Positions 37,441 through 57,276 of a stretch of 64,000 nucleotides of DNA are shown here, piece by piece. Source of the stretch: a virus (lineage: Duplodnaviria > Caudoviricetes); the IMG/VR virus record IMGVR_UViG_2675903036_000001, positions 1 to 64,000 of that record, one strand, 5' to 3'. Position numbers and translations under genes: made by a program. Below the pieces are notes generated by a model. The model saw nothing but the letters and a program-made list of their open reading frames with translations, made no database searches and was not told the origin of the DNA. The first letter of the stretch is position 1, and each line of letters starts with the position of its first letter.

Positions 37441-37734
37441 ATGGAGTCTCAAGAGCAGAGAGAGTTGCCGCGTTACAAAGGTCACAAAGAGGTTTGTGCT
37501 TTAAAAATTAAGAAAGTTATCAGAAACCAACAATCTTTTGCAATTACGTTAAGTTTTGAAGAGGAAGGCTATTCTGATCTAGCTGTCAGTGAGGAATGGT
37601 TGATCAGACATCGACCGCAAGCAGGAGGTTATTACGTTGTTTGCCAAGATGGATATGTGTCGTATTCGTCAGCCAAGGCATTTGAGGATGGCTATACGCT
37701 TATACGACCAGTGGGACCATTGGGGGTTGTTTGA
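37441..37734 (+). CDS. Small phage protein
   Basis: HKEVCALKI...GGYYVV..DGY.SYS...FEDGY. Confidence 0.65.
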   Translation: MESQEQRELPRYKGHKEVCALKIKKVIRNQQSFAITLSFEEEGYSDLAVSEEWLIRHRPQAGGYYVVCQDGYVSYSSAKAFEDGYTLIRPVGPLGVV

Positions 37735-39221
37735 AAAATCAGAAATTGCCTAGTAGAGCTATTGCTGGCGATGAAATCTTCTTCCATCACAAAGATGCGC
37801 CGTGCTGCGGAAAGGTATTGTCTGTCGGCAAGCATGGCGTGACGGTCGATCAGGAAGGGAAGCAGCATCGCGTCACGTGGGAGCGGGTGCTAGGACACAA
37901 GAAACGTATATCACCAAAACTAAAAATACTGCATGAAGGCGAGGACGGCATGATCGTAGAAGATGCTATGGGCAAGAAGCGCTTCGTGCATATTCCGTCA
38001 GATGCTAAAGAGGATCAATACATGGTTAAAGCATTGTCTGATAAACGGCTATTGTTGTTTACAAAGTCAGAGAAGATCGCTAATCGTGCAGGCCTTCACC
38101 TGGAAAACAGGACGGACCGTACAGGACGAAATCAAAAAAAATGGGTACGAAGTGGCCAGGATGAAACGAAAGGCGATAAACAAACCAAAACAAGTGAGTC
38201 TGAGCAAAATAGCAGCCATGGGCAGACAGAATTTGGCGCACACAATATTAAAGCTGGGCAAAAAGTGCAATTCAAGCTGGGCGAGCTTGCTGGTGAAGGC
38301 AAAGTTGTTGGCAATCCGGGTGCTGATGGTGCGCATGTTAAGGATTCAAGCGGCCATATTCATCAGGTGCGCTGGGATCAGGTAACAGGGAATAGTTCGC
38401 ATAATTCTGAGAGTGATAACAAAGGAGCTGGCGATGATCAGCAAGGCCAAAGCAAGCTATTTGATGACGAATTCGTTGCATCACTGCCTAGCATAGCAAA
38501 ACAGCCACATGATAACTGGGAAGACCTGGTTAAACATGGCAAGGAAGGTCTGGAGCAATTCAATGAGATGTTAGGCAAGGTCCAGCAGGTTATGGGATTG
38601 AAATCTGGACACAATCCAGATGATATTACTGATGAGCAATGGGGGAATGACGACGGCTATCTATTCATTGCGCCTCTGAAAGGTGAGAAACGGGCAAGAG
38701 AAAAAGTAGAGGGAGATTATGATGGTGATTGGTCGCAATTGCGCGATGTGGTTAGGGCGACAATTAGTGTGCCTACTATGGCGCAAGTCAAGCAGGCCGT
38801 GGGACATTTGCATGATGTGGGTATTGATCTGGCGCAAAAACCGAAGAACAGGTTTGAGAAGTCTACGCATGAAGGTTATCGCGATTTAATGGCTATTGTT
38901 AAGCTGCCTAATGGTATGGTTGCAGAACTGCAAATTCATGTCAAAGCAATGACACAGGCAAAAAATCACGGGCATCACCATTATGGAATCACCCGCTCCT
39001 TGCAGACTAAATATAATGAAATCGAGCCTTCTGATAAATGGAGTGATGAGGATCATTCTGAATACTATAAAGCGATCAAGGCTCAACGTAACATATATTC
39101 CGAAGCTTGGAGAAAGGCTAATGGAGAGACTAAGAATCAATTGACAAAGGCATTCCTAGGTAGCACAATAATATTGCTGTTTAGGAAGAAGGAGGTGCCA
39201 AATGAACATGATTTACATTGA
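37731..39221 (+). CDS. Multidomain protein with C-terminal RelA/SpoT-like synthetase
   Basis: PLKGEKRAREKV, LRDVVRATI, GYRDL and AELQIH. Confidence 0.75.
   Translation: MKNQKLPSRAIAGDEIFFHHKDAPCCGKVLSVGKHGVTVDQEGKQHRVTWERVLGHKKRISPKLKILHEGEDGMIVEDAMGKKRFVHIPSDAKEDQYMVKALSDKRLLLFTKSEKIANRAGLHLENRTDRTGRNQKKWVRSGQDETKGDKQTKTSESEQNSSHGQTEFGAHNIKAGQKVQFKLGELAGEGKVVGNPGADGAHVKDSSGHIHQVRWDQVTGNSSHNSESDNKGAGDDQQGQSKLFDDEFVASLPSIAKQPHDNWEDLVKHGKEGLEQFNEMLGKVQQVMGLKSGHNPDDITDEQWGNDDGYLFIAPLKGEKRAREKVEGDYDGDWSQLRDVVRATISVPTMAQVKQAVGHLHDVGIDLAQKPKNRFEKSTHEGYRDLMAIVKLPNGMVAELQIHVKAMTQAKNHGHHHYGITRSLQTKYNEIEPSDKWSDEDHSEYYKAIKAQRNIYSEAWRKANGETKNQLTKAFLGSTIILLFRKKEVPNEHDLH
39141..39169 (+). promoter_or_regulatory. 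Internal sigma70-like promoter for the 76-aa gene and the HD hydrolase
   Basis: TTGACA-17-CACAAT, followed by a GGAGG RBS before ATG 39202. Confidence 0.6.
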
Positions 39222-39432
39222 GAATGAAGGCGCTTTGTATCGCGGACCAGCTAGGGGAGTTCCTAGGGAAATCTGGAACGCAAAAGAAAAGAAATTCGTG
39301 CCTTACAAGGGCGCTGTCCCTAAGCCAATTGAGTGGGGGTACGAAATTGATGAGGCAGAAGCGCGGGAAATGATGGGTATCGAGGAAGAAGGGAATGGGA
39401 AAAATGATCCTGTTCTTCAAGTCGCACATTAG
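39202..39432 (+). CDS. Small protein, candidate immunity/antitoxin
   Basis: Strong RBS; overlaps both neighbours. Confidence 0.6.
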   Translation: MNMIYIENEGALYRGPARGVPREIWNAKEKKFVPYKGAVPKPIEWGYEIDEAEAREMMGIEEEGNGKNDPVLQVAH

Positions 39433-39976
39433 CGGCTACACCCGAGGTAATACCTACGTTCATGACCATTACCGTCGAGCTGCAAAATTTGCGGCTGCCA
39501 AGCATAAAGGCCAAACCCGCAAGGATGGCAAAACACCCTACATAACACACCCAGTCCAGGTGGCATCTATTCTGAGTAGAGAGGCCAAAGTAACCGATCC
39601 GGTTATCCTGTTAAGCGCATTACTACATGACACACTGGAAGATACCGACACCAGCTACGAGGAATTGGAAGCAGAGTTCGGCAACGAGGTTGCCAATCTG
39701 GTGCTGGAAGTGACCAATAATCCAAACCTATCCAAGCTGGATAGCAAAACAGAGCAAATTGCCAAGCCGTGGTCTCCAAAAGCTATCAGACTCAAGATGG
39801 CCGACAAGACAGCTAACCTGCGAGATCTGGTTAATGCTCCGCCAGTTGGAATGTCAAAAGACAAAAAGATTGAATACGCCAATCATGCCAGAAAGGTGAT
39901 TGAAGGCATGAGAGAGCATCCAGAAGCGTTAAAACGATTATTCGATCTAGCCTACCAAATAGTTCTCAGTCACTAA
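39395..39976 (+). CDS. HD-domain small alarmone hydrolase (Mesh1/SAH-like)
   Basis: AAKHKGQTRK...PYITHP, ALLHDTLEDT and KMADKTANLRD. Confidence 0.9.
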   Translation: MGKMILFFKSHISGYTRGNTYVHDHYRRAAKFAAAKHKGQTRKDGKTPYITHPVQVASILSREAKVTDPVILLSALLHDTLEDTDTSYEELEAEFGNEVANLVLEVTNNPNLSKLDSKTEQIAKPWSPKAIRLKMADKTANLRDLVNAPPVGMSKDKKIEYANHARKVIEGMREHPEALKRLFDLAYQIVLSH

Positions 39977-40240
39977 ACTGCTTCATTCCATAGCGGTATG
40001 GTGTCGTAACGTACCATAATTATCTTCGACAACCTGGGCAAAACTTTTTGCTGCTAAGTATTGTCTTATTAATTACTCCGAGCGTGTGTGTGGGGTGCTT
40101 CAAAAAACATCACGCAGCTGGTGAGCAGATCTCCTTTTGCAGAGTTACCCATCCTCTGTTTCTTGCGTGAGCCAGTCGATTCCGTGCGTTAGTCGGCGAT
40201 TCTATTTTTGCAAGCTGAGAAACCGGCTGCAACTATTGTA

Positions 40241-40257
40241 TGTCGTGACCTGACAAT
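40241..40257 (+). promoter_or_regulatory. Putative late promoter, leaderless, muF gene
   Basis: TGTCGTGA-CCT-GACAAT-7 nt-ATG (40265). Confidence 0.7.
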
Positions 40258-40264
40258 ATGTGTC

Positions 40265-41425
40265 ATGACAACGCTTCTAATCGATATAGGCCCATTGAGC
40301 GAACATCAATCAGATGAAGCGCTAGAGGCAATCTACAAATCAGTCCACGATCATGGCGGTGATGATTCTATCTGGAATACGCATGAATCCCCATATATCA
40401 GACGATTAATCGAGTTATTTACCGAACGAGGATTAACTCGTCTCGAAAAGGTAAGGACAGAGTTAACTGCGTGGGCTAAAGGTGAAAAACACCGTAAAGA
40501 TAGTCCTGTTCCAAGGCCGGAGGGCATGATACGCCGGTGGGACAAAGGCGAGCTTGCATTGGTCAAGCTCTATCTTGAAGCCTTGCCACCGGAGCAATTC
40601 ACCCTGGATGATTGGGGAATGGTCGTTGATTTTTTGGTGCAGCGTTATCTGCCGGAAGATGAATTGCGTACCGAAGCAGAATGGCTGGCAACGCGATCAG
40701 GATTAATGGGCAAGGTGCAAGCAAACATGCAAAAGTCACCAAACTTGAAGCAGGCAGACAGGTTGCTGGCAGCTATGCCCAATACCGTCAAGGGTGCGTC
40801 CAAGCAATTCAAACTATCATCCGTGCAACATGCGGTACTGGACTTTGGGCGTGCGCGTGCAGCCGAAGCAGTGACAAGGCTATCTGACAACGTGCGTCAC
40901 AAAATGCGTGATGTGATCATGCAGCATGAAGAACAGAAGATGCTCAATGGTGGAGCAGCTACGCCGGGGTCAGCCCTAAAAACGCGATTGTTAGATGAAT
41001 TTGCCGTATTGAACAGAGATTGGCGGCGTATTGCGTTGACAGAAGCAGGGGAAACCGCCAATCAAGGTTTTATTTCCAGTATGAAGCCTGGCAGCAAATT
41101 GAGGCGCGTTGAACAATACGCGAATGCCTGTTCTTTCTGCAGGAAGATTGATGGCGCCATTGTAGAGGTTGTGGAGCCTTCGAAGCCATTAAAGAATCCC
41201 GATACGATGGTTTGGCTTGGAAAAACCAATGTGGGGCGTTCATTGTCACCACACAAGCGCGTGGGAGGTGAATTAATCGAGCGCTTGCCGGAAGAACGCT
41301 GGTGGATTGCGGCAGGTGTACAGCATCCGCACTGCCGTGGACAGTGGATAAAATTACCTGAATCAAGACCAGAAGACGATCCTGATTTTGCTGAATGGCT
41401 AAGAAGAACGTTGGAGCAGATATGA
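40265..41425 (+). CDS. MuF-like minor head protein
   Basis: RDWRRIALTE, ACSFC and QHPHCRG. Confidence 0.75.
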   Translation: MTTLLIDIGPLSEHQSDEALEAIYKSVHDHGGDDSIWNTHESPYIRRLIELFTERGLTRLEKVRTELTAWAKGEKHRKDSPVPRPEGMIRRWDKGELALVKLYLEALPPEQFTLDDWGMVVDFLVQRYLPEDELRTEAEWLATRSGLMGKVQANMQKSPNLKQADRLLAAMPNTVKGASKQFKLSSVQHAVLDFGRARAAEAVTRLSDNVRHKMRDVIMQHEEQKMLNGGAATPGSALKTRLLDEFAVLNRDWRRIALTEAGETANQGFISSMKPGSKLRRVEQYANACSFCRKIDGAIVEVVEPSKPLKNPDTMVWLGKTNVGRSLSPHKRVGGELIERLPEERWWIAAGVQHPHCRGQWIKLPESRPEDDPDFAEWLRRTLEQI

Positions 41426-42000
41426 TACTTTTCTTGAAAGCTCACCCTATTAATCAGGCCATTTCACGTAGCACGTCAGCAAGCAAATTGAATGATAATG
41501 GAATCCGTCGCAATCCTGGCGAACCATCACCAGAGGCTGCTAAGGAAGGAAACTATAAAAAGCCGGTGATGAAGTGGCGTGGTCTGACCATTCGTATCGA
41601 GAATCCTGCCGGTTCCGTGCGTCGAGGGAATGGGTGGGAAACCAGAATGAAATATGACTATGGTTATATATCCGGTTCAAACGGGGTCGATGGCGACGAA
41701 GTAGATGTGTATATTGGCCCAAATCTCGATGTCACTGAAATGGTTTACGTTGTGCATCAGCGTAAATATGGGGACTGGAACAAGTACGACGAAGATAAAT
41801 GCTTGATCGGATTTATGAGTGAGGATGAAGCCAAGGCAGCTTACCTTGCGCATTACGATGATCCACGCTTTCTAGGGCCGATAACAGCATTGCCGGTTGA
41901 GGAATTTATCGAAAAGGTCAAAGCGACAAGAGAACAGTCTGGAATGATCAAATCGATGATTCTATTCTTCAAAGCCAACGTCAATCGGTGCTCGATTTAA
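41422..42000 (+). CDS. Inorganic pyrophosphatase-like domain protein
   Basis: IENPAGSVR, DYGYI..S.GVDGDEVDVYIGP and YDEDKCLIGF. Confidence 0.8.
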   Translation: MILFLKAHPINQAISRSTSASKLNDNGIRRNPGEPSPEAAKEGNYKKPVMKWRGLTIRIENPAGSVRRGNGWETRMKYDYGYISGSNGVDGDEVDVYIGPNLDVTEMVYVVHQRKYGDWNKYDEDKCLIGFMSEDEAKAAYLAHYDDPRFLGPITALPVEEFIEKVKATREQSGMIKSMILFFKANVNRCSI

Positions 42001-42057
42001 TGCTGCGATGATGAATATCTAAGCATTACATTCTTAAAACAAGATTCATAAAAAAAG

Positions 42058-42074
42058 CATCGTGACACGACAAT
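42058..42074 (+). promoter_or_regulatory. Putative late promoter, DarB-like gene
   Basis: CATCGTGA-CAC-GACAAT. Confidence 0.6.
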
Positions 42075-42108
42075 AGGCTCAATAACCTTTTGTCGAAGTC
42101 GCGAGCCT

Positions 42109-45100
42109 ATGTTGATTCTTTTCCTGAAAGCAGAACAGCAATCACTGCTGTTTGACGCTCCTGTATTAGTGCAGGGGTCAGTCCGTAAAGACGGAAGTGT
42201 AGTAAAACCGCACGTGCGGATTCAAAAAAAGAAACTGCCTGATTCTGGCGGTACACAGGGGAATTTATTTGGTGATAATTCCACTGAACAATCGAAAAAA
42301 CCCTCAAAGTTAGACGCATTCATTGCCAAGCAAGGCGGAATGCAGTCTCTTGCGTCCAAGCTATCAATGCTGACTGAAGGTCAGCAGCAGACCATCTTTG
42401 AAAAGATGGCGGCGCTGGATGGAAAGAACGTCAAAGAAGTAGCTGCGATGTTTGACGGCTTTTCTGTCAGTGAGATCGAACAGAAGCAGCCGGATTTGTT
42501 CACATTGCAACATGAAGCGGTAAAGGAAGCAAACAAAGAAGAGTTTGCGGAAGAGGACAAAGCTCCACAGATTATCAATCATCTTGACCCACTTGAATTT
42601 GGCGTTAAAGCCGGTATCACCAAGTCAGAACGGCGCAAACTCAATGCACAGGCCGTAGCTATCGTCACAGACAAAACTTCATCGGATATCACTGAAGACG
42701 ACCGTGCGATCCTGCGTCAGTATTCCGGCAATGGTGGCTGTGGTGATTCGCTCAATGAATTCTATACCGATCCGGCAGTTGCGCTTGCCATGTGGAAAGT
42801 CGCGGAAAAGCTGGGTATTACTCACGGTACAGCCTTGGAGCCTTCATGTGGATCGGGCGTATTCCTGCACACTGCGCCTGCTGGATTCAAGGTTACTGGC
42901 GTTGAATTGGAAAGCATCTCTGCCAAGATGGCCGAAGCATTACATGGTGAACGGCATGAAATCGTGAATGCTTCGCTGGAGCGATTTGCTACTCAGGATA
43001 CGCGACGATTTGATATCGTAATCGGCAATCCCCCCTATGGGCCGCGCGGCATGCTTGCCAGGGATGACAAGAAAGAGCTGTCCAAAGCGGAAGAGTATTT
43101 CATTGATACCAGTCTGGACAAGACCCGTGCAGATGGACTATGCATGCTGGTAGTGCCAAGCGGCATTATGGGTAGCAAGAATGGCCGCAAATTCAGGGAG
43201 CGCATGCTGAGAAAAGCGGAGTTCCTGGGCGCTCAGCGATTGCCTAACAGTGCATTCGAGGCAAGTCATACCGATGTGACGACCGACATTATTTACCTTC
43301 GCAAAAGGCCGGATGATATAGCAGGCGCATTATGCGTTGTGGATAAGAAAGCTCTGCAAGCGCTTGGTGTGTGGGATGATGAATTTCTGGCAGGAAAATA
43401 CTTCGAAGGACGAGGGAAAGCCAGCGTGTTTGGCGAGGTGGGCACTGCCAAGCGTGCGTTCGGTGAAATTTATACCGTAAATGGGACAATGCGCGGCGTG
43501 CCATTTTTGATCGAGGAATTCAATCCTCATTCACAAACGGTTACGCCGTCGATTAATGACATTCTGTCGGTATTACCGGATCAAGCGGCCAAGGATAAAG
43601 CGCTCAATGCAGCTGAAAAGCAACCATATCAGAATGGCGCCAAGGTAGGTGATATCAAGGTTGAGGATGGCGTGACCTATGTGCTGCAGGGTAATCCACC
43701 ACGTTGGCATCGGGTGGATGATGCGATGCAATCCGAAGCTGTTACCCAAGCGCAAGCATTGGCATCTGAAATTGATCGTCTTATGGACGGCGAGGTGGCA
43801 GACCGGGCTGCGCTCGAGCAATCCCTCCGTGACTGGGTGGCGCGGCACGGCATACCGGCCAAGCATCCAGAGCTGTTAATCGCAGCAGCCCAGGATAAAA
43901 CGCTTTATCGGTTAATCGGTGCGGTAGGCAAGGACGGCAGATTGTCCGATGCGGTGATGGGCAGAGCCGCGCGCAGAATAGAGGGTGGATTCGATGCAGT
44001 AGCACAATCATTGGCGTTGACGCATGAGTCTGGTGATTTCTCGGTTGCTGAATTAGCCGAAGCGCTAGACAGAGATCAGGACGATATCCTGGATCAGCTG
44101 ACTGCGGATCATCGTTATGCATATGTCGATGGCGATAGATGGTCTACTATGGATACTTACCTGACAGGTCATCTATGGTCTAAACTTGATCAAGTCAAGA
44201 GCCAGCTTGCCAGCAATGAATTAGTCATGGTTATGCGTTCAAAGCTGGAAAATCAGCAAAAGAGACTTGAAGAAACCATCGATCCAAAATCACTGGAAGA
44301 TGTGGAAATTCAGTTAAACAGCGCATTCATTCCCCTAAGCATTCTGGAAGCATGGATTGACGATAAGGCTGACAGATTACGCGAGTCCAACCCCGGTTCA
44401 GGCTGGTATCAAAACCTTAAGCAAGCTTCCATCACTTTTGAGAATGGCATTTACACCATAGGCAAAGGTACGGCGATCAATGAATCCTTGCTCGATAAAT
44501 ACTTGAATCGAACGGGCGTCAGAAAGGACGATTTGCCGACAATTGATGAATGGAACGAAGCATTCAAAAATTGGCTATGCGCATCAGAGTATCGAGACGC
44601 AGTAGAGGATTTATATAACCGTAAATTCCGTGGCTTCGTGCATCGAGAATTCACCGATGAACCGATTGATGTGCCTGGATTGGCCAATCAAGACCAACTA
44701 AAACGTTACCAATGGCCGGGGCTGAAATGGGCGTTATCGGTCGGTAAAGGGATTATTGCGGATGATGTTGGATTAGGGAAGACCGTAAAGGGCCTGTTGC
44801 TCGCACGATTGGCCAAGCTTACCGGCAAGGCGCATAAGCCGATGATCATGGTTCCTAAGTCAGTATTAGCTAACTGGTACGTGGAGTCTCAAAAATGGTT
44901 CCCCGGTTCCAAGGTGCTTACCATAGGCGGTGATTTCTCCTATAACGACAAAGGTGAATTAGTCGGGCGTGACGATAATAAGAACGAGCGTGAACGCAAA
45001 TATCATGATCTGACGCAAAACGATTATGATTTCGTAATCATATCTGAGCCGGTCTTTCAGGAAATAGACCTTGATCCGGTGACGAAGAAAGAAATGTATG

Positions 45101-48051: not shown

Positions 48052-48370
48052 TCCTAAGACCTTTGCGGAATCAACTCTACAATTATTGCAGCAAGACCCG
48101 AGGCGATACCATAATTTCGGGGTGTACTGGTATTTCGTCAAGGCGCTCATGAAGCGGTATTACACCAAAGATAATCTGCATCTCCTTGGCGAGTATATGG
48201 ATGCTGACACCATGGCGAGAATGCCTGAGCACGCTACTTTGCAGGAAGCAATAGAAGCGGCTATCGAGGAATACCGGCATAATGCCAGCTTCAACCTTGG
48301 TCGCTCGACCGTCGAGGATTTAACAGGTGGCGGTGTGCTTGACCTGCATGATGAGGATGCTGGCGTCTAA
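48044..48370 (+). CDS. Hypothetical protein coupled to the DarB-like gene
   Basis: Overlapping start; AGGAG upstream. Confidence 0.65.
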   Translation: MVDPKTFAESTLQLLQQDPRRYHNFGVYWYFVKALMKRYYTKDNLHLLGEYMDADTMARMPEHATLQEAIEAAIEEYRHNASFNLGRSTVEDLTGGGVLDLHDEDAGV

Positions 48371-48408
48371 CTTTCGATAGCGAGAGATCCCTCGTCGTGT
48401 GAGCGTTC

Positions 48409-48425
48409 TGTCGTGACCGTACCAT
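48409..48425 (+). promoter_or_regulatory. Putative late promoter, leaderless
   Basis: TGTCGTGA-CCG-TACCAT-7 nt-ATG (48433). Confidence 0.7.
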
Positions 48426-48432
48426 AGCGCGT

Positions 48433-48567
48433 ATGAGCCAGATTGTATTCATCAAAGCTTTCAGCAGCGAATGGAAGGAGGAGGATCATTCCCGTGATGG
48501 TAACGGAAAATTTGCTGAAAAATCATCCGCCAGTACCGGGTCGAGCCTGCTCCACAACCGTGGGTAA
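48433..48567 (+). pseudogene. 44-aa leader-only ORF (truncated cargo gene or mini-gene)
   Basis: MSQIVFIKAFSSEWKEEDHSRDGNGKFAEK resembles the 50611 N-terminus MRPILFIKSAPLKWNESDHSRNEKGEFAHK. Confidence 0.7.
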
Positions 48568-48681
48568 ATAGCGTTATCCATGAACTCTACAGGGAAACTC
48601 TGTTTTTGGCTGTCTGATTTTTCTGGAAGCTGAGGCGCATGGTTTCTACATTTGCATCAATTCCATTTTTTACAGCAATTT

Positions 48682-48838
48682 CACGAGCTTCCTGCTGAAG
48701 CAGGACTGCCATTAATGGGATGCGTTAGATGATCTGGCCAAGCTCTTGATCACCGGCTCAACAGAAGTAAGCGAGGCATTGACGCATATCGGCATCGCCA
48801 CTCGCTACCTGAATCGCTGGATGGGAAGGAGCCGCTAA
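48682..48838 (+). pseudogene. Second, frameshifted copy of the antirepressor 3' end
   Basis: Closely similar to 33475-33630; shares GCATATCGGCATCGCCACTCGCTACCTGAATCGCTGGATGGG exactly. Confidence 0.9.
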
Positions 48839-48948
48839 CTCATCATTAGCTGGTAATAGGGAAGGAGTGAAATTTCGCTCTTTCCCTTCAGCTCATCAAG
48901 GACAAAGACGCTTGATTTGTCGCGGCTATACGATTGATTGAGTTTTTA

Positions 48949-50307
48949 TCAAAGTGAAACTTTTGCTCTTTCCATAGCCTTCTCATCAAGGGAAAACAGA
49001 TTTACGCGTATCGCGCGACTGAGCGCAGCCTGATGCAATTGCTCTTCAGTTTGGCCAGATGGATTATTCGCTGTCTTCACGTTTTGATATTCAATACTGA
49101 AATCCAGGATATTGAGTAAGGAGTTTTGATTCGTCGAAGAACCGGAATATGCAATCGTGTGCTGAAACCCGAGCTGGGCAAGGAATCTGGCAAAATTCGT
49201 GAAGTATGTGGAATAAGTGCTCAGTGCCGATGGCAATACCCAGGAGATGTGTTTTAGCTTGCTTGTGACCATATCATCGGTAGTAGTGTCGAATGTGCCT
49301 GCCAGCGATTTCCAAGGTTGCACCTGGGTATAGGTATTCTGGGGGATACCGAATAACCCCTTGGCATTCAGCGCATTGAGAGCCGCTCCAACGGCGATTG
49401 ATCCTGTGATGGTTTCCGAGGGACTTGCAGAAGTAGGTTGAGCGATATTTTTTTCATAGATGAACGGTATTTGTTCAAGAGTAGAGCTCTGCCATGCATG
49501 AGGGACGACATCCAGGGTATTGTATTCACTCGTGTAGGTGAGGCTTGCGTTATTACCTTGCGGAATCGATCCGATGACGTACTCGTAGTAGGAAGCGAAA
49601 TTGGTTTCTCCCGGGGTAGGGCCCGCCGTAGCCCATACGTCGATTTCTGTTACCTTGCCATTTGAGTTCCAATTCTGAAGATTTTGCATGTAGAGAGCCA
49701 GCACAGGAGAGAGCGCTCCGCCCAAGCTATGTCCTGCTACGGCAACGTTAGCTCCTGACGGGATGTTGACCGTGGTGCTCGCTAATTGACTCTGAAGGAC
49801 TGTGAGCATGGTGTTGCTGTTCGCATCCACCATACTGAGCAAGGCCGAGAGACCGTCCGCCGCGCCTTGGGAGATGGCTGCATCAGCATACTGACTTGGT
49901 AAAGTCAATTCATTGCCGAGTATGCTTTGCCACGTTACGTTGGTGTGTACGCCGAAATCTTCCGTTAACCACCCATACACCGAATCGATGTTGGTGCCAG
50001 CTATCGCCACGACGAATTGATTTTGAGAAGGACTGTAGAAAAGTACCATTGTGTTATCTGCGATGGCTGGGACAGCTAATGGATTGTGTGACCAGATAAC
50101 TGGTCCCCAAATGACTTGCCAGTCGTTACCGATAAATCCTTGAATTGTTGTATCGTTAAGCGACGCCGTGATGACCTTTGCTACAAATCCCTGAAGATCG
50201 GTGATTGTATTGAAGGAGGTTACTCCGAATGCTGCATTGGAGAGCAGGGAAAGACTATGGATTTGCTGCTCTATGGAATATGTTCCGGGTTGCGCTGTCT
50301 GTTCCAT
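48949..50307 (-). CDS. Class 3 lipase / alpha-beta hydrolase (moron)
   Basis: VAIAGTN, VAGHSLGG, TAGPTPG and NTLDVVP; start at MEQTAQ. Confidence 0.85.
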   Translation of the reverse strand: MEQTAQPGTYSIEQQIHSLSLLSNAAFGVTSFNTITDLQGFVAKVITASLNDTTIQGFIGNDWQVIWGPVIWSHNPLAVPAIADNTMVLFYSPSQNQFVVAIAGTNIDSVYGWLTEDFGVHTNVTWQSILGNELTLPSQYADAAISQGAADGLSALLSMVDANSNTMLTVLQSQLASTTVNIPSGANVAVAGHSLGGALSPVLALYMQNLQNWNSNGKVTEIDVWATAGPTPGETNFASYYEYVIGSIPQGNNASLTYTSEYNTLDVVPHAWQSSTLEQIPFIYEKNIAQPTSASPSETITGSIAVGAALNALNAKGLFGIPQNTYTQVQPWKSLAGTFDTTTDDMVTSKLKHISWVLPSALSTYSTYFTNFARFLAQLGFQHTIAYSGSSTNQNSLLNILDFSIEYQNVKTANNPSGQTEEQLHQAALSRAIRVNLFSLDEKAMERAKVSL

Positions 50308-50586
50308 TTTTTGTATCCTTTTCTGGAAGGGAGTGGTGTGTAGGAGAAACAAAAGCCCTTTTACGTAAATAGCGCTTATCGCAATACAATCCGAATTTAC
50401 TGGATAGGCCGTCAGACAGGGCATGAAAACAATATAGGGGAGGCAAAACAGGAGCAATAAATGAAAAAGAACCGTTTTCCCCCTGTTATTTAAGTGTTCT
50501 GATATGCCAAAAGCATGGTAAGCCAATTATTGTCGAATTGATCATGGCTAACGCAATTTTTGATTGCTCTTGTCTGGAAACACATA

Positions 50587-50603
50587 TGTCGTGACCTCAA
50601 AAT
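50587..50603 (+). promoter_or_regulatory. Putative late promoter, leaderless
   Basis: TGTCGTGA-CCT-CAAAAT-7 nt-ATG (50611). Confidence 0.7.
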
Positions 50604-50610
50604 AGAGGCC

Positions 50611-53600
50611 ATGAGGCCAATCTTATTTATCAAATCAGCTCCCCTCAAATGGAATGAATCCGATCACTCGCGCAATGAAAAGGGTGAGTTTGCGCATAAA
50701 CCATCCATGCATGTTGAGTCAAGCGCCGGAATCGAATCATTTGAACAGGCAAGAGCGTGGTGGCGTAAAAATCTCGGTGGAAAGGTGGCCGACCTGACGG
50801 TTCATCTTTCGCGTTCCGGCGACGGATGGAAAAAAACAATAAAGATCAAGGTTGATTTCCCGTCCAATGAAACCCACGCTTTTACTGAAAAATCAGATCC
50901 TGGCGTAAACCCAGATTGTTACGATAATCCAAAAAAACGTTTGCATCCGAGATCATTTATTCGTGAACGCGCGATATTAATGGATCGCATTGCTAGGACA
51001 ATCGAGTTTCCACAAACGAAAGCCATTCATTATGGCGCTGACCTGTTATTCGAGCGCGTTTATGGAGGCAAGCACCTTGTGGTTGCTTTGACGTGGAGTC
51101 AAGCACGCGGTTTATATGTGTTTGATTCCGCGTATGCGATGTCGGCAGACAAAGTAAAGAAAATCTTGAGCAGTCAAGACCGCACAAAAAACAACGGCCC
51201 ACTTCAAAAAAGTGAGCCATTTGGATCGGCGCCTTCGGTCTTTCGGGACTCTACTGAATCCGGGAGTTACCCCACCGGCAGTAAACCTGTGGTATCAGAA
51301 CCCATCGGCTTCCGTCGCTGCTGCACAGATACTATAGTTGACTTTCTAACGACGGTCAACGCCGATTTGGTGAAGTCGATTCCGGCGGGTGCGCGCTGGA
51401 TCACGGTTCACCCTAATGGCAAGGACGCAAAAGGCCAGCCATTGCTTGTTCAGGAGGAATCAGACGGTTCGATGCGCGTCATTGGTGGCGCTGGCGGCAA
51501 GCTTAATTACCTGAAATTGCGCCATGTCCGCTCTGAGTCCGATTACAAGAAAGAGGCTGGTGAGCGCAGAAAGGCGCAAGCTGAGAAAAGAAAAGAACAG
51601 CGAAAAAAGGATAAAGAGCTTGGTATAAGCGAATCCAAGGGCCGAGCGCGAGAAGCTATTGTTGCTCAACGCAGGGGCGCGGAAAGAGAGTACATCCAGT
51701 CTGTCTCTCAAGCAATGGGCTGGGAGCAATCATCAATCGAATTCCCGGAGCATAAATACGGCCATTTGTCGGATGCCGCCGTCAACAAGCTACGCGGCAA
51801 GCACCATAGAAACTTACTGGAAAAAGCCAAGCAAGCAGTCGAGCTGCAGCGTCAAAAGTTGCTGTCGAGTGAAGAGGCGAGATTGTCTGCCGGGATAGGC
51901 GAAGTGCCTCTTGATACGCAGGATGATGATAGTCTGTCGGTTGATGATCTTAAACCCATCCCAAGTCAGAATGGAGGTCTTGGATATAGCTCTGATTATA
52001 AAGGTCGCGCTGAACGTGCCGGGCTGACTGAGGAAGACTTGAAAGCTGAGTCAAGCGCCATCCGCTCAGAAAAGCTTGCGCAAATGACTGACGCGCAACG
52101 GCAGGCGGCAATCAGGCTAGGTGAAACATCCAGGCTGCTGAAGCAGGAACTGGAAAATATCCGGGAGCCGGTTGTATCGAACGCGGTGAGTGTAATGGAA
52201 GATGCCAAAGCTGCGGTCGAATTACTCAAGGCAGAAAAGAAGCTGAAGGCCATTAACCAGCAAGCAAAAATGAAGCTGGCTGAAGTGGATGAGGCCAGTG
52301 CAAAGGTAGAGCCAAAGGCGTTTGTGCTTGAGTATGCGGCTGACCCTGATATAGAAAAGAAAATCGCGGAAGATATCGAAAACGATCTGCGCACTGCGCA
52401 AACACGCACATTTTTGACGGAATTTCAGCGGTTAGCCGGTGATAAGCCGGAGGAAACCGTTGGAAAATATATGGGTATCGGTGCTTATAACAGCATTAAT
52501 TCCCTGGCGCTTGCTGTGGGTGGTGATGCTTTGGTAGATCGCTCAGTGGTAGATGTGCTGGGTATAGCCGGTGCAGCGCAGGTGCTGGCGAGGCGAGTCC
52601 ATGCCGATCTGAAGGAGGATGTAGATCGGATTGCTGAGGGCATGCAGGAGTTTCACCTTCACCACTACATGACAACCAGCGATCAGGCACTTAATCAAGC
52701 ACGTGAATTGATGGATGTGGCGCGTGAAATTGAGATAGGTGAGGGTGCAACAGGGGCTGATCTTAATACCGCACAAGAGCTCAATGCCAAGCGCCGGGCT
52801 GCGGTGACTGATGCGCAAAAGATCATCGGGCAAGCATTAGGAGAAATGGAGGCCAATGCTGCTCTGGTGATGGCGCTGAAGCAAGGCGCAAAAGATTTGG
52901 TGCAGGTACCATTAGGCAATCTATCTGTCGAAAGTGCAATTGTGCGCGCTAGGGCAATCGGATTGCAGCGTGGGGATTATCAAATTGACGATTCTGCAGG
53001 GCAAACCTTCCTGACCGTCAATGCAAGCGGTATGGATAGATTAGCCAAGCCGGTTAATCGCGAAGATGTAGAGCAGATTAAACATAATCTCTCGATCATG
53101 CGTGGCGATCACGATGAAGATGATTGGCTGCCGTTGGGTGTTGCCAACAGACCAGATTTGGCGATAAATGTTAATCCGGGCATTGCGCCAAGGTTAGCTG
53201 ACCCATTTCAACCAAGCGAAGACCCGGAACAATCACTGCGAGATTATATCGGTGGACGCACGGCTGATGGCGATACGCCTGCCGATATCCTGGCTGACAT
53301 TCAATCGCTGGATTTCTTCCGGAAAGCAGGTAGTGATGAAGCGTACAGAGCTGCGCTAGATGCTGTTGCACCATTAAAGGATCAAGATGGAAAAATACAA
53401 CGAGCTGAATCACTCTCTGACCATTTCGAGCAATATGCAGACCAATTTGTACAATCCAGATACGGTGGATCAAGATCCCCGATCAACCGTCAAAAGTTTG
53501 AAATTAACCAAAAATCAGTTGATGCACTCCATCGCGCATTGTCAGAGGCACCGGAGGGTGTGGCGGCATATAAGCAGATAGGCGAGTTGACCCATACTGA

Positions 53601-55884
53601 TCAAAGGACGCTTAGAGAGTATTTCTATCGTCATGTGGCGAAGGAAACCCCGGAATCCAGCATGTTGCGTCAAGACCTGGAGCAATTGGACAAAAACGAG
53701 CCGGAAAAAGAGTTTGTCGATATGTTTGGCGACACGGCTACTAACCCGGAATGGTCGGCTTGGCGCAATCAGCGTGATGAGCTTGCGGCGAAGGTTAATG
53801 CTGCATCTCTAACCTGGGATAAGTATATTGACACGATGCGTGGGCATGAAAAAGCCTACGAGTCCATTCAGGACATGATTCGTTCGCGCGTGTCCAAAAA
53901 GTTTGTTGATGAGCACAATAAACTGAATCCCGATAATCCTTTGAAGATAGGCCGGTCTGTTATCCGTAATAACCTGAATCATCTGGATGCAACAGACCAG
54001 GAAACGCGGGAAGCAAGAATGGCAGAACAAAGGCAGTTGATAGACAGTCTGCGTGAGCGCTCTCAAGGCAGATATGCTGCAGGTTCTGTCTCTGACAAAC
54101 TGGATGCGGTGAGAGAACGTCAGGAAGCGTTTGAACAGTCGCAAATGGATTTCTTTTCTACTGAGGAAATGCCTGCTGAGGAAGCCATTAAAGAATTAAG
54201 AAGCGATGAGCGGCATACAGTAGGGCATGAAGCAGAGCGGCAGATTGCCGGGATGATGGGTATTGTCGGCAAAAACTTTAAGCCGGGGCAACCCGTAAAA
54301 CTCTGGAATCCATCGATGAGCGGGGGCGATAATTACGCGCGTCAGCGGGCTATCAAGCTGATTCAGGCAAACAAGCGCATCGGCTTGCACCTAGGCGCGG
54401 GATCCGGAAAAACGCTTGTCGGTCTCGGCGGATTTACCCATCTTCATCAGCAAGGGCTTGTAAAAAGAGGGATTGCGGTAGTTCCAAGCATAGTCCAAGG
54501 GCAGTTTTCGGGAGAGGCCATCAGGTATCTTGAGCCGAACAAGTTTAACTGGCACATCGAGCCTGGCGCAAACCGTGCGGAGCGAATCGCGGCATATAAA
54601 AATCCTGATAATCATCTTTGTGTTGTAACTCATCAATCGCTTCGTGACGATCTGTTATATCTGGGTTCGCAACGCGCGGGTATTCCGCCAAAAGAAATGT
54701 CTGAGCGTGTATCAGTGATGACTCACGCAGAACGCAAAGAGTGGGCGCGTGATCTGATGGAGAAAGAAGGAATCGATTTTCAGTACATGATGATCGATGA
54801 AGGTCATAACCTTCTCGACCGTCAAGGGAAGGAAGATTCCGCCATGTCCAACGTGATCGGCTCTTTTTCTGCAAATACTCCTTACTATGTGAGCATGACC
54901 GCCGACCCGGTTCGCAATGACGCGTCGGAAATATTCTCCGCGTTGCAGAAGGTCGCACCGGAAAGATATACCGACAGAGCGGAGTTCATGCGCCGCTACG
55001 GAACAGATACATTGGCATCAAAGGATGCATTGCGTCGAGAAATGGCAAGATACTTCTATCCTCACAAGATAGAACCAAAAGTCAATATCAAAAGCGATGT
55101 GGTGAACGTGCCGCTCAGTGAAGGCCAGAAACACGCTCTGTCTTCATTGGATAAGGATTTGGCGTCTATGCGCATTGCCAGAATGCAAGGCAAGGTGGAT
55201 ATTGAAGCTGCAAAACGGGTGAATCCCGCTATGTTCGATGGCGTTCCCGAAGATCGGCATGAATCGATTGCGAAGTCGTTGCAAAACGCAATTGGGATTG
55301 TCCGTGAGTCCGCTACGCAACGAATAATCAATGCTCACCCAGAATCTGCGAAACTGGACGAAGTGGCGAAACAGGTCAAAGCGAGAAGCGGGAAACCAGG
55401 AATTATTTTTTCACACAGCCTGGAAGCCGTTGAATCCATCAAGTCGCGGCTGGAAAAGGAAGGGATGCGCGTCGTTACGATATCAGGAGCAGATTCGTCT
55501 GCTGAGAAGGATCGTAAGCGCAAGATGTTCAGCCCCGATGGGGGTGAAGAACCGAAAGCCGATATTCTTGTGGCGTCAGATGCTGCAAGCACGGGGCTAA
55601 ACGCGCAGCGCGGTCAGTACCTGATTCAGTACGACGTGGTGAATACTGCGATGACGCACGCTCAACGCAGAGCGCGTATACACCGGATTGGGCAGAAAAA
55701 TGATATTGAATTGATTGATTTGGTTGGAGACCATCCTTCTGAGCGCAGAGCAAGAGACCGATTGGCAAAAAAGTATCAGTTGAGGGATTTGACTACGAGC
55801 CCGCTGGAAGGACTTGATGATACCGGCCTGGCTTATTTCCTGCGCCAGCGAGAACTAACACAAAATCAAGGAGGGTTGTTTTGA
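50611..55884 (+). CDS. Polyvalent protein: N-terminal putative BECR-like nuclease, long helical region, C-terminal SNF2 helicase
   Basis: GAGSGKT, DEGH, MTADP, STGLNAQ and QRRARIHRIGQ. N-terminal HAFT...ERAILMDRI..TI..P...FDSAY; the nuclease call is tentative. Confidence 0.75.
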   Translation: MRPILFIKSAPLKWNESDHSRNEKGEFAHKPSMHVESSAGIESFEQARAWWRKNLGGKVADLTVHLSRSGDGWKKTIKIKVDFPSNETHAFTEKSDPGVNPDCYDNPKKRLHPRSFIRERAILMDRIARTIEFPQTKAIHYGADLLFERVYGGKHLVVALTWSQARGLYVFDSAYAMSADKVKKILSSQDRTKNNGPLQKSEPFGSAPSVFRDSTESGSYPTGSKPVVSEPIGFRRCCTDTIVDFLTTVNADLVKSIPAGARWITVHPNGKDAKGQPLLVQEESDGSMRVIGGAGGKLNYLKLRHVRSESDYKKEAGERRKAQAEKRKEQRKKDKELGISESKGRAREAIVAQRRGAEREYIQSVSQAMGWEQSSIEFPEHKYGHLSDAAVNKLRGKHHRNLLEKAKQAVELQRQKLLSSEEARLSAGIGEVPLDTQDDDSLSVDDLKPIPSQNGGLGYSSDYKGRAERAGLTEEDLKAESSAIRSEKLAQMTDAQRQAAIRLGETSRLLKQELENIREPVVSNAVSVMEDAKAAVELLKAEKKLKAINQQAKMKLAEVDEASAKVEPKAFVLEYAADPDIEKKIAEDIENDLRTAQTRTFLTEFQRLAGDKPEETVGKYMGIGAYNSINSLALAVGGDALVDRSVVDVLGIAGAAQVLARRVHADLKEDVDRIAEGMQEFHLHHYMTTSDQALNQARELMDVAREIEIGEGATGADLNTAQELNAKRRAAVTDAQKIIGQALGEMEANAALVMALKQGAKDLVQVPLGNLSVESAIVRARAIGLQRGDYQIDDSAGQTFLTVNASGMDRLAKPVNREDVEQIKHNLSIMRGDHDEDDWLPLGVANRPDLAINVNPGIAPRLADPFQPSEDPEQSLRDYIGGRTADGDTPADILADIQSLDFFRKAGSDEAYRAALDAVAPLKDQDGKIQRAESLSDHFEQYADQFVQSRYGGSRSPINRQKFEINQKSVDALHRALSEAPEGVAAYKQIGELTHTDQRTLREYFYRHVAKETPESSMLRQDLEQLDKNEPEKEFVDMFGDTATNPEWSAWRNQRDELAAKVNAASLTWDKYIDTMRGHEKAYESIQDMIRSRVSKKFVDEHNKLNPDNPLKIGRSVIRNNLNHLDATDQETREARMAEQRQLIDSLRERSQGRYAAGSVSDKLDAVRERQEAFEQSQMDFFSTEEMPAEEAIKELRSDERHTVGHEAERQIAGMMGIVGKNFKPGQPVKLWNPSMSGGDNYARQRAIKLIQANKRIGLHLGAGSGKTLVGLGGFTHLHQQGLVKRGIAVVPSIVQGQFSGEAIRYLEPNKFNWHIEPGANRAERIAAYKNPDNHLCVVTHQSLRDDLLYLGSQRAGIPPKEMSERVSVMTHAERKEWARDLMEKEGIDFQYMMIDEGHNLLDRQGKEDSAMSNVIGSFSANTPYYVSMTADPVRNDASEIFSALQKVAPERYTDRAEFMRRYGTDTLASKDALRREMARYFYPHKIEPKVNIKSDVVNVPLSEGQKHALSSLDKDLASMRIARMQGKVDIEAAKRVNPAMFDGVPEDRHESIAKSLQNAIGIVRESATQRIINAHPESAKLDEVAKQVKARSGKPGIIFSHSLEAVESIKSRLEKEGMRVVTISGADSSAEKDRKRKMFSPDGGEEPKADILVASDAASTGLNAQRGQYLIQYDVVNTAMTHAQRRARIHRIGQKNDIELIDLVGDHPSERRARDRLAKKYQLRDLTTSPLEGLDDTGLAYFLRQRELTQNQGGLF
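51186..51359 (-). ncRNA. Candidate antisense structured RNA with its own promoter and terminator
   Basis: Minus-strand TTGACC-17-TATAGT; GUAA-capped stem; terminator GGCTCACTT/AAGTGGGCC followed by GTTGTTTTTT. Confidence 0.5.
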
Positions 55885-56355: not shown

Positions 56356-57276
56356 ATGAACGACGCGGAGATACTTGCAGCGACACCAGATTACATAAGC
56401 ATCGGGAGCATGCTCAAGGCAACTCCTGCGATGGAGTCTGGGCAGCGTCTGATTTATCTGGAAGCTAGCAACGAGGCGCTTGACCAGCAGAATGAAGTGG
56501 TTCTGCAGAAAGCGCTCAAGGATAGCGCGGACTGGTTTCTGCGCTACGGAAATCTGGATATCGACCATTTCAGTTTGATCGGCAAGCCCAATCCGGCCAA
56601 AGGGTATGCAGGCATACCGGATTATCAGAACTACGAGATTGGTAGACCGCTTGATGTCCGCTTTGATGGTGCCAAGACATTTGTTAAAGGCGAGATTTAT
56701 TCTGGTCAAGGTGCTGCTGCTGAACAGGCCAATCAATTCTGGGAAAGCTTGACTGAAATACAGCCTCCAGCCAGATGGTATCCATCCGTAGGTGGAAGCA
56801 TCATGGAAAAAGCTGTTGAGCTGGATGCCAATACACAAGCGCGCAAAACTGTTATCAGAAAAGTGCGCTGGTCTAATATCGGTTTTAGCAAAACGCCAGT
56901 CAATCCAGCGGTTCCCACAGTGGCCACCGTTCCCATAGGTGTGCTCGTCAAGAGCTGGGGGGCATCCGGTCTTGATATCGCCAAGGCATTGGAAGCAGGT
57001 TACGGCACGGATTCCGCTCAATTGTCGGGCGGCGCGGCATTGCGCAAGCAATCCCTGCATGGCAATCCCATTGGATATTTTGAATTACGCAATCGCTTAT
57101 CGGAGGCTTTGCATAAAGGCAGTCTCGGTAAGAACCCAGGCATACGTGACCTGATTGCGCATTGCACGCAGAAGTTCGGGTTGTCTCGGGACGAGGCCGC
57201 CGAATGTGTTGAGCGCTTCATGCGCGATTTAAAACGTGGGTTGAAAAATCGCCAGGCAATCAGGTCGGGCGGGTAA
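56356..57276 (+). CDS. Prohead protease
   Basis: EASNEALDQQNE, GNLDIDH, IGRP, PSVGG and SKTPVN; upstream of scaffold and MCP. Confidence 0.75.
   Translation: MNDAEILAATPDYISIGSMLKATPAMESGQRLIYLEASNEALDQQNEVVLQKALKDSADWFLRYGNLDIDHFSLIGKPNPAKGYAGIPDYQNYEIGRPLDVRFDGAKTFVKGEIYSGQGAAAEQANQFWESLTEIQPPARWYPSVGGSIMEKAVELDANTQARKTVIRKVRWSNIGFSKTPVNPAVPTVATVPIGVLVKSWGASGLDIAKALEAGYGTDSAQLSGGAALRKQSLHGNPIGYFELRNRLSEALHKGSLGKNPGIRDLIAHCTQKFGLSRDEAAECVERFMRDLKRGLKNRQAIRSGG

Follow-up and report, generated by a model that had tools for sequence, protein, structure and literature searches.

The DNA analyzed here is the first 64 kb of an 86.7-kb IMG/VR virus record (IMGVR_UViG_2675903036_000001, rated 95% complete), and this whole 64,000-nucleotide stretch is called the window below. 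Between its portal and prohead protease genes lies a block of genes for unrelated enzymes, several of which begin with much the same short hydrophobic peptide ending in lysine followed by alanine or serine; this peptide (the leader) is the subject of the present analysis. The phage is an uncultured myovirus of ~87 kb, and its host is probably a Nitrosomonas. The host assignment comes from the HD domain protein of the block, since its closest named homologs (80–81% identical) belong to Nitrosomonas assemblies, suggesting that the host is an ammonia-oxidizing Nitrosomonas. The major capsid protein (MCP) is of the SPO1/Twort family, and the closest cultured relatives, at ~42–50% MCP identity, are Bordetella phage PHB04, Pseudomonas phages Dolphis, Jeremy, and Touem01, Morganella phage Mecenats66, Aeromonas phage ST4, Yersinia phage fHe-Yen8-01, and E. 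coli phage ECML-606-1; the Thermus Lalka phages come next, at 36%.

The block is bounded on the left by the portal gene (35690–37429; Pfam Phage_portal, 4.6e-20, and PHROG portal families), with the terminase gene lying farther upstream (29389–30912), and on the right by the prohead protease gene (56356–57276; phrog_1028, 1.8e-38), which is followed by the genes for scaffold (57288–57938) and MCP (57984–59444; phrog_752, 5.4e-88). These genes and those of the block listed here are all on the + strand. The block opens with a conserved 97-aa protein that lacks the leader (37441–37734; phrog_11049, 1.5e-21, a family of unknown function) and the protein that we call the first cargo protein (37731–39221), which is 496 aa long and has a weak RelA/SpoT-like domain at residues 325–417 (Pfam RelA_SpoT, 2.1e-5 and 25.2 bits, under the 27-bit cut-off). 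They are followed by an HD phosphohydrolase (39395–39976; Pfam HD_4, 6.7e-18), a conserved minor head protein (40265–41425; orthologs in all seven phages compared), a polyvalent-type inorganic pyrophosphatase (InPase; 41395–42000, likely start 41422; Pfam InPase PF18823, 1.4e-43), a 1980-aa DarB-like N6-methyltransferase and SNF2 helicase (42109–48051; Pfam N6_Mtase, Eco57I, SNF2-rel_dom, and Helicase_C; phrog_10089 DarB-like, 1.6e-115), and a leaderless Ulx-like protein (48044–48370; phrog_1629 Ulx-like anti-restriction, 5e-15). Next is a 44-aa remnant open reading frame (ORF; 48433–48567), a duplicated 5′ end of the helicase gene (nt 48409–48456 are a 71% copy of nt 50587–50634), and the last member is the large virion-type superfamily 2 helicase itself (50611–55884; 1757 aa; Pfam Helicase_C and ResIII; phrog_62, 3.6e-250). 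The domains of the polyvalent protein repertoire (InPase, N6_Mtase plus SNF2, HD_4, and the weak RelA_SpoT) all sit between portal and protease. A Pfam search with E up to 5 gave no match for the minor head protein, the N-terminal domain of the first cargo protein, the N-terminal extension of the helicase, or the 97-aa protein, and only the last of these four matches a PHROG family.

The leader has the consensus (M)x0-3-[ILV][ILV]F[FLIT]-K-[AS]; it starts four full genes and the remnant ORF, and there are two internal copies and one C-terminal copy. The HD protein carries MGKM-ILFFKS (nt 39407–39424) followed by HISGYTRGNTYVHDH, the InPase ADM-ILFLKA (nt 41425–41442; M-ILFLKA from the start at 41422), the DarB-like protein ML-ILFLKA (nt 42115–42132) followed by EQQSLLFDAPVLVQGSVRKDGSVVKPH, the remnant ORF MSQ-IVFIKA followed by WKEEDHSRDGNGKFA, and the helicase MRP-ILFIKS (nt 50620–50637). 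In the helicase the leader precedes an N-terminal extension of ~250 aa that ends in DLVK|S (residues 252–256; the vertical bar marks the putative cut), and the conserved IPAGARWITVHPNG follows immediately. The first cargo protein has a conserved N-terminal domain of ~100 aa, then YMVK|A (residues 97–101), an internal leader LLLFTKS (residues 107–113, nt 38049–38069), and, in its C-terminal part, QLTK|A (residues 470–474) and the tail IILLFRK (residues 480–486). The InPase ends in GMIKS-MILFFKA (nt 41941–41976), that is, a GMIK|S site and then a second leader. A preliminary description made from the DNA letters had quoted these five N-termini and the internal and terminal copies in the RelA/SpoT-like protein and the pyrophosphatase, and all of them are present. 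It had also noted two motifs that follow the leader, and both were recovered: GYTRxxxYVxxH or SVRKDGSVVKPH in the HD and DarB-like proteins, and WxExDHSRxxxGxFA in the remnant ORF and the helicase. The leader is followed by at least five unrelated continuations: the hairpin discussed below, the InPase start, IPAGARWITVHPNG, WxExDHSR, and EQQSLLFDAP. In an AlphaFold2 model of the HD protein (mean pLDDT, the predicted local distance difference test score, 88), residues 1–18 score below 50 and have no secondary structure, so that its leader is predicted to lie outside the fold.

The second of these motifs, W-x-E-x-DHSR-x3-G-x-FA (48460–48510 and 50641–50697), resembles NHDPKTGRFA, which stands behind an LLVKS leader in an unrelated protein of 1874 aa (P0122), and it looks like one more short module that is reused behind leaders.

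A strict form of the leader pattern, [ILVM][ILV]F[FLIT]K[AS], matches the six-frame translation of the window seven times, always on the + strand, in real ORFs, and between 38052 and 50620, with five matches at N-termini; a looser pattern adds four matches elsewhere, each outside the window's listed ORFs. In the whole 86.7-kb genome (101 ORFs, 26,194 residues) six matches stand against 0.10 expected, the seventh being in the 44-aa ORF, which is under the ORF length cut-off and is not among these six. None of 2000 within-protein shuffles reached six matches (maximum two), and a chance origin of the motif is ruled out by these numbers. The preliminary description had named equal frequency in early genes as a refutation of its interpretation, and this refutation fails: the motif is present within the first 25 residues of 4 of the 9 + strand ORFs between portal and protease vs 0 of the 92 other ORFs (Fisher p = 3.1e-5). 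The codons used for the leader vary from copy to copy (ATC/ATA/ATT, CTG/CTT/CTA/GTA/TTA, AAG/AAA, and TCG/GCT/GCC/GCA/TCA) and the sequences on either side are unrelated. With different synonymous codons in the copies, the repeat is conserved as protein and not as DNA, so that selection acts on the peptide.

The leader is also found in relatives of the window phage. In PHB04 the orthologs begin V-IVFLKA (HD), VGA-VVLLKA (InPase), MI-ILLTKA (DarB-like; 54% identical to the window protein), and MKP-ILFLKA (helicase), and its RelA-like protein has an internal LLFFKA at residue 115. In helicase orthologs the leader directly adjoins IPAGARWITVHPNG (MKPILFLKAS in PHB04, MKRLMIKAS in Mecenats66, and ILFFKS in locus L011). 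Among IMG/VR loci (12 found via the protease and 36 via the portal), helicases, DarB-like proteins, InPases, and other ORFs carry a relaxed form of the motif at the N-terminus; in the 36 portal loci, the 218.8 kb downstream of the portal contain 28 relaxed matches, 22 of them on the + strand, vs 6 in the 210.3 kb upstream. Variant leaders (PLMAKA, DLMKA, ALLKG, and KLFLKA in Mecenats66, ST4, Touem01, and ECML-606-1) precede NUDIX-type and other proteins that are encoded upstream of terminase; in ECML-606-1 a 287-aa protein begins MTKLFLKA. Since leader-bearing genes thus lie outside the portal–protease interval in relatives, the leader tracks the protein and not the map position. In Dolphis, ST4, and fHe-Yen8-01 this interval contains no cargo genes at all.

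A 42-residue profile made of the leader and the hairpin behind it (alignment A2) retrieved, from 8000 scored candidates, 218 longer proteins at E ≤ 0.01, and from 1.84 billion representative proteins it retrieved 1422 at E ≤ 0.001. The domains in the proteins found include ART-PolyVal, InPase, PBECR3, Zeta toxin/AAA_33, NUDIX, GNAT, HD_4, RadC plus helicase, and protein kinase, and RNases are also among the representatives. Among the best 150 representatives, 71 have a K[AS]-ended leader before the hairpin within the first ~30 residues and 29 have an internal leader only by a crude rule (several of these in fact begin with a leader, their hairpin having been missed by the pattern); 17 have no leader and a signal-peptide-like start, another 32 have no leader, and one has no hairpin by the pattern used. 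Because the hairpin, V-x-GYTRKDGTxVxxH, is found also without the leader, including in signal-peptide proteins, it is a separate and more general module, to which the leader is the phage-specific addition. In 12 of 12 viral loci that encode relatives of a leader-bearing Zeta-toxin protein, genes of the same portal and minor head families are its neighbors. The leaderless form of the basic hairpin (V-x-GYTRKDGTxVxPH in P0010, P0047, P0087, P0130, P0139, and others), which has no Pfam family, is often repeated in tandem right behind the signal peptide in small bacterial proteins; a peptidoglycan-binding domain is present in one of these.

In several relatives, proteins that are separate in the window are fused, and the leader or a K[AS] site then stands at the module borders. 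In the window only the DarB-like protein is multi-enzymatic and the rest are single genes, whereas multi-activity polypeptides are found in loci L017, L031, L051, and L047 and in protein P0002. In L031 the InPase runs through DAPAMIKA into QQLSLFDAPVMVQASVKKDGTVVKPY (PAMIKA-QQLSLFDAP), whereas at this point the window sequence is interrupted by a stop codon and resumes with MLILFLKA-EQQSLLFDAPVLVQGSVRKDGSVVKPH (MLILFLKA-EQQSLLFDAP). L017 encodes a single 2044-aa protein comprising leader, hairpin, InPase, AMIKA, and helicase; L047 joins InPase and Ulx, and L051 joins the N-terminal domain of the first cargo protein and InPase. P0002 (841 aa) runs from a leader at residue 3 through two ART domains to a second leader at 481, followed by InPase at 501–628 and by AMIKA-VLFFKS-hairpin before a weak GNAT-like match under the Pfam cut-off (E 5.6e-4). 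The C-terminal (A)MIK[AS] of InPase is conserved and links it to the next module in the fused proteins L031, L033, L051, L017, L047, and P0002. Modules are shuffled between relatives at these leader and site borders. At these borders a full leader often stands immediately behind a canonical site, as in GMIKS-MILFFKA of the window, AMIKA-VLFFKS, and DMTKA-IIFLKS, and the window's first cargo protein likewise has a canonical site and then a leader (YMVKA...LLLFTKS). That a full leader is kept behind an existing cut site suggests that its hydrophobic stretch has a role of its own.

The ~100-residue N-terminal domain of the first cargo protein (37731–38030; GDEIFFHHKD...GKVLSVGKHGVTV...) is encoded right after portal in most relatives (loci L021–L071), joined through a conserved hydrophobic-x-K-[AS] site to various effectors (RelA/SpoT-like, Zeta toxin, or InPase); it may be a constant delivery or anchoring domain.

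Sites that resemble the end of the leader are also present in the head proteins. Each head and tail protein was aligned across the window and six cultured relatives, and those of its conserved Lys columns with a conserved Ala or Ser in the next position were counted. They make up 5 of 6 conserved Lys columns in scaffold, 4 of 7 in protease, 2 of 16 in portal, and 1 of 6 each in MCP and minor head protein, so that the head proteins give 13 of 41 vs 1 of 17 for the tail proteins (sheath 1 of 6, tube 0 of 4, baseplate J 0 of 2, and tape measure 0 of 5). The residue three positions before the putative cut (P3) is Met, Leu, or Ile at 13 of 13 head sites in the window proteins and Ala at the single sheath site; with this P3 rule the difference between head and tail has a Fisher p of 0.0064. 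The conserved sites are EMRK|A (residues 55–59) and NLGK|S (565–569) in portal, five [ML]-x-K-[AS] sites at residues 19, 77, 131, 163, and 178 of scaffold (conserved in seven phages), residues 21, 52, 152, and 210 of protease, AIYK|S (residues 22–26) in the minor head protein, and DLQK29|A30 in MCP. The preliminary description had listed MRKA, LTKA, LVKS, and LQKA as head-protein occurrences of the motif; MRKA (portal), LVKS (scaffold), and LQKA (MCP) indeed fall in conserved columns, but the scaffold LTKA is not conserved. Among the cargo proteins, Ala or Ser follows a conserved Lys column just once in 37 within the 1500-residue helicase interior, and this site (EPKA) has no hydrophobic P3; the count is 6 of 60 for DarB and 2 of 5 for the RelA-like family, where the two sites lie at domain ends. 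Both K[AS] sites of the first cargo protein (YMVK|A and QLTK|A) are kept in 10 relatives.

Members of the minor head family (40265–40300 in the window, and orthologs) start with a hydrophobic stretch that has Asp in place of the leader Lys (LLIDIG, LLFDLG, VFLDVY, LILDLT, and VFIDFS), ~20 residues ahead of the conserved IYK|S site.

The MCP site DLQK29|A30 is conserved in seven of seven relatives and separates a variable N-terminus from the conserved LEAGYGTD...GGALR segment; from these alignments it is the probable MCP maturation site. The Cps protein of Listeria phage A511 reportedly loses ~23 N-terminal residues. For the phage 812 MCP, the Protein Data Bank (PDB) holds a full chain of 463 aa (5lii) and a chain of 439 aa (9row_B) that starts at Ser25, right after VVK24, and residue 1 of the latter aligns with A30 of the window MCP. 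In the available text of PMC5618024, PMC7344957, PMC12886913, and PMC3185647 no statement was found on the cleavage site of SPO1/Twort-like MCPs.

The protease that would cut at these sites is predicted to have the fold of the T4 gp21/assemblin-type enzymes. A sequence search against the PDB gave nothing meaningful; the similarity came from a Foldseek search with a model of moderate quality (pLDDT 61.5), which matched T4 gp21 (5jbl; E 2.7e-6, probability 1.00, template modeling scores 0.28/0.43), with weak herpesvirus protease matches after it. The candidate catalytic residues His71 (in DIDH) and Ser144 (in YPSVGG) are invariant across seven sequences. The protease tail, after DIAK|A, is a copy of the MCP N-arm (nt 56971–57069 vs 58056–58154; 67% identical to MCP residues 25–57, DIAKALEAGYGTDSAQLSGGAALRKQSL); the protease may enter the prohead by mimicking this arm.

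A second lineage has LAKA in structural as well as cargo proteins. Thermus phage Lalka27a has LAKA sites in scaffold, protease, and portal, its DarB homolog starts MDLVRLYQELLAKA-EQPALF (ELLAKA|EQPALF), and its 1715-aa Lvh helicase has ...EPALLAKA-EVLAPGERWITLKPHG (ALLAKA|EVLAPGERWIT). As judged from these sequences, leader and structural-protein motif co-vary in this one second lineage. According to the available text of bioRxiv 10.64898/2026.04.20.719267, the Lalka27a DarB homolog (Gp2) is a minor virion component and Lvh is virion-associated. The minor head homolog is annotated as particle-associated in Yersinia phage fHe-Yen8-01.

These observations support a view of the block as a cassette of interchangeable "polyvalent protein" effector modules (RelA/SpoT-like, HD, InPase, DarB-like methylase-helicase plus Ulx, and large helicase). 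The interpretation that we favor, with moderate confidence, is that the leader is a Lys-type counterpart of the T4 capsid-targeting propeptide, bringing effectors into the prohead and being cut there at hydrophobic-x-K|A/S, the same sites serving to split the fused polyproteins. Its two parts do not have the same standing: the cleavage is likely, and the chances that the leader itself is the address are close to even or a little less. In such a scheme the leader would be a flexible propeptide whose last residues form the cutting motif of the protease, hydrophobic-x-Lys|Ala/Ser. By analogy with the T4 capsid-targeting sequences it would carry its module into the assembling prohead, where the partner could be scaffold or protease, and the protease would cut after the Lys while it trims MCP, portal, scaffold, and itself. 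In the fused relatives the same sites would split the polyprotein into single enzymes, and the freed enzymes would be injected with the DNA as counter-defense or takeover factors. The modular cargo tag proposed in the preliminary description is partly supported: the interchangeable effectors, the K-[A/S] motif shared with head proteins, the position at module borders, the co-variation in Lalka27a, and the reported presence of homologs of the two large proteins in virions speak for it, but the leader could be a processing site only, and it is not related to the P1 DarB signal (see below). In the block the leader begins HD, InPase, DarB-like protein, and helicase; several other genes of the interval have no leader, and leaders also occur outside the interval in relatives.

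Several points weigh against this interpretation. The difference between head and tail proteins is only p = 0.046 when the P3 rule is left out. The leaders have Phe at P3 together with two more hydrophobic residues and the structural sites have Met or Leu there, so the two classes might be read by different partners. No statement on an MCP cut was found in the available text of the phage 812 neck paper, which makes the phage 812 chain indirect evidence, the PDB support being the depositors' chain sequence. Not every conserved K[AS] need be a cut site, since the protease's own SMLKA is modeled in a β-strand (again at pLDDT 61.5) and the conserved KMNKA of DarB lies inside the helicase region. 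The fusions could be recent gene fusions that retain old N-termini, because several internal leaders have Met just before them. Finally, the Ulx-like and 97-aa proteins, the PHB04 Ser/Thr phosphatase, and the Touem01 GDSL lipase are encoded in the interval and have no leader.

Some of these points bear on other explanations of the leader. The motif might be a processing site only, with loading being due to the basic hairpin, the N-terminal domain of the first cargo protein, Ulx, or the minor head protein. The inter-module sites of fused relatives can lack the hydrophobic ILFL stretch and be no longer than PAMIKA, a hairpin or other conserved motif stands behind most leaders, and the P1 DarB capsid-targeting sequence requires more than 9 and at most 30 residues, according to the available text of PMC9024508, all of which would fit such a role. 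It is rather improbable all the same, since trimming 6–9 residues from a free N-terminus has no evident purpose and yet the leader is kept on unrelated proteins in distant relatives, and since a processing role would not call for the full leaders that are still present behind canonical sites (GMIKS-MILFFKA, AMIKA-VLFFKS, and DMTKA-IIFLKS). Still less probable is an N-terminal element that has nothing to do with the prohead protease, such as a docking strand or a degradation tag that limits unpackaged toxic enzymes, its likeness to K[AS] sites being coincidental. Many cargo domains are indeed toxic (Zeta toxin, ART, and RelA/SpoT-like), short hydrophobic-basic N-termini are recognition tags of cellular proteases, and the P3 difference between leaders (Phe) and structural sites (Met/Leu) would fit such an element. 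On the other hand, it would not account for copies of the motif that are internal, at module borders, for the co-variation with the structural-protein motif in Lalka27a, or for the fact that the leader always ends in K-[AS], like the MCP maturation site.

A repeat that acts at the DNA level, either as a recombination or module-shuffling site or as a translation-initiation element with the peptide as its by-product, can be nearly dismissed. Modules are clearly shuffled between relatives at these borders, and a separate 10-nt motif, TGTCGTGACC, lies upstream of three block starts; but the six codons differ synonymously in every copy and the flanks are unrelated, and a direct-repeat search found no DNA common to the leaders except the duplicated helicase 5′ end. 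For these reasons the DNA-level repeat was rejected.

A bolder version of the propeptide interpretation would make the six residues of ILFLK|A a portable and self-sufficient cargo-loading code for the large group of phages with SPO1-type capsids and Lys-specific gp21-fold proteases, the protease, held in the prohead by its MCP-mimicking tail, being the receptor that captures the tagged protein and releases it by the cut. We regard this as doubtful. If it were true, every injected effector of such phages, many of them unannotated, could be read from the genome, and six added residues would load any protein. The more modest interpretation would have consequences of its own. The proteins that are injected with phage DNA are mostly unknown and have no common signature, and the leader would be such a signature for a widespread phage group, so that packaging and injection of an effector could be predicted from sequence; it would also account for the splitting of polyvalent proteins into working enzymes in the absence of a built-in peptidase, and foreign proteins could be loaded into capsids with a very short tag. 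No published description of this leader was found in full-text literature searches, and no relevant passage was found in the available text of the Mecenats66 paper. Ordinary tryptic virion proteomics is blind to the proposed cut because it falls after Lys, and this may explain why it has gone unnoticed.

Two further features of the block deserve mention. The 10-nt motif TGTCGTGACC is present in three exact copies on the + strand (40241–40250, 48409–48418, and 50587–50596), each 17–26 nt upstream of an ATG, and these ATGs are the true start of the minor head protein, that of the remnant ORF, and that of the helicase. With up to one mismatch there are 6 matches vs 1.75 expected (0 of 100 shuffles reach 6), and it may serve the cargo block as a late promoter or translational element. 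Between the Ulx-like and helicase genes a class-3 lipase gene is inserted on the minus strand (48949–50526; Pfam Lipase_3, 5.2e-9). It is flanked, within 48433–50526, by two footprints, of which one (48715–48833) is an 86% copy of the 3′ end of the ORF at 32806–33630 and the other is the 71% copy of the helicase 5′ end that forms the leader-bearing remnant ORF. The lipase gene looks like a moron inserted by recombination.

Cargo-loading peptides are known from several other systems. In encapsulins a short terminal peptide directs unrelated enzymes into an HK97-fold shell; unlike the leader proposed here, it is usually C-terminal, is not cleaved, and binds the shell protein directly. The closest parallel is with phage T4, whose capsid targeting sequences (on IPI-III, Alt, and gp24) are cleavable targeting peptides that are removed by the prohead protease gp21 (PMC5694885, available text). 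In both cases a short N-terminal peptide (10–20 residues in T4) is carried by unrelated head-internal proteins that are encoded with the head genes, and in both it ends in a protease cleavage motif common to MCP and scaffold, which in the window is a motif match only; gp21 and the window protease are predicted to have the same fold. The differences are that the putative cut is after Lys before Ala or Ser, whereas T4 and phiKZ-like sites are Glu-specific, (L/I)-x-E, that the leader is shorter (6–9 residues), strongly hydrophobic, and without sequence similarity to the T4 peptides, and that its motif is also a module separator in polyproteins. It may therefore work like a capsid targeting sequence, but it is no sequence relative of one.

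Phage P1 offers a second comparison, as the window has a DarB-type methylase-helicase gene followed by an Ulx-like gene, and the DarB-like protein is ~30% identical to those of the P1-like phages D6, SJ46, and RCS47 (tblastn). In P1, as given in the available text of PMC9024508, a reporter joined to the N-terminal 30 residues of DarB is directed into the capsid, and the MCP is cut after Glu120. The preliminary description had invoked packaged P1 DarB as a precedent, but homology of the leader with a P1-type DarB targeting sequence was rejected: the first 100 residues of RCS47 DarB lack the leader motif, and its alignment with the window protein begins near residue 154.

The repertoire of the block is that of the polyvalent proteins of phages and conjugative elements described by Iyer, Burroughs, Anand, de Souza, and Aravind (2017; PMC5512222, available text), which are encoded among head genes and predicted to be injected. 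The window has InPase, RelA/SpoT, DarB-type methylase, and SNF2 in common with them, and the relatives have ART-PolyVal, PBECR, Zeta toxin, NUDIX, and RadC (leader-bearing relatives also GNAT), but the window modules are mostly separate genes and not one polypeptide. Processing of polyvalent proteins was proposed there to be due to a built-in zincin (MPTase) or to fused assemblin-like peptidases, and no mention of a shared leader or of trans cutting by the prohead protease at a Lys motif was found in the available text of that paper. In the phiKZ-like giant phages (SPN3US gp245, motif A-x-E) the prohead protease cuts many packaged and ejected proteins at one motif, and their N-terminal propeptides may aid incorporation; they differ from the window phage in the Glu-type motif, in propeptides that are mostly longer than 100 residues, and in the kind of cargo (PMC5694885, available text). 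According to the available texts of these papers, cleavable targeting peptides (T4), long propeptides (phiKZ-like phages), and an N-terminal signal on DarB (P1) are established.

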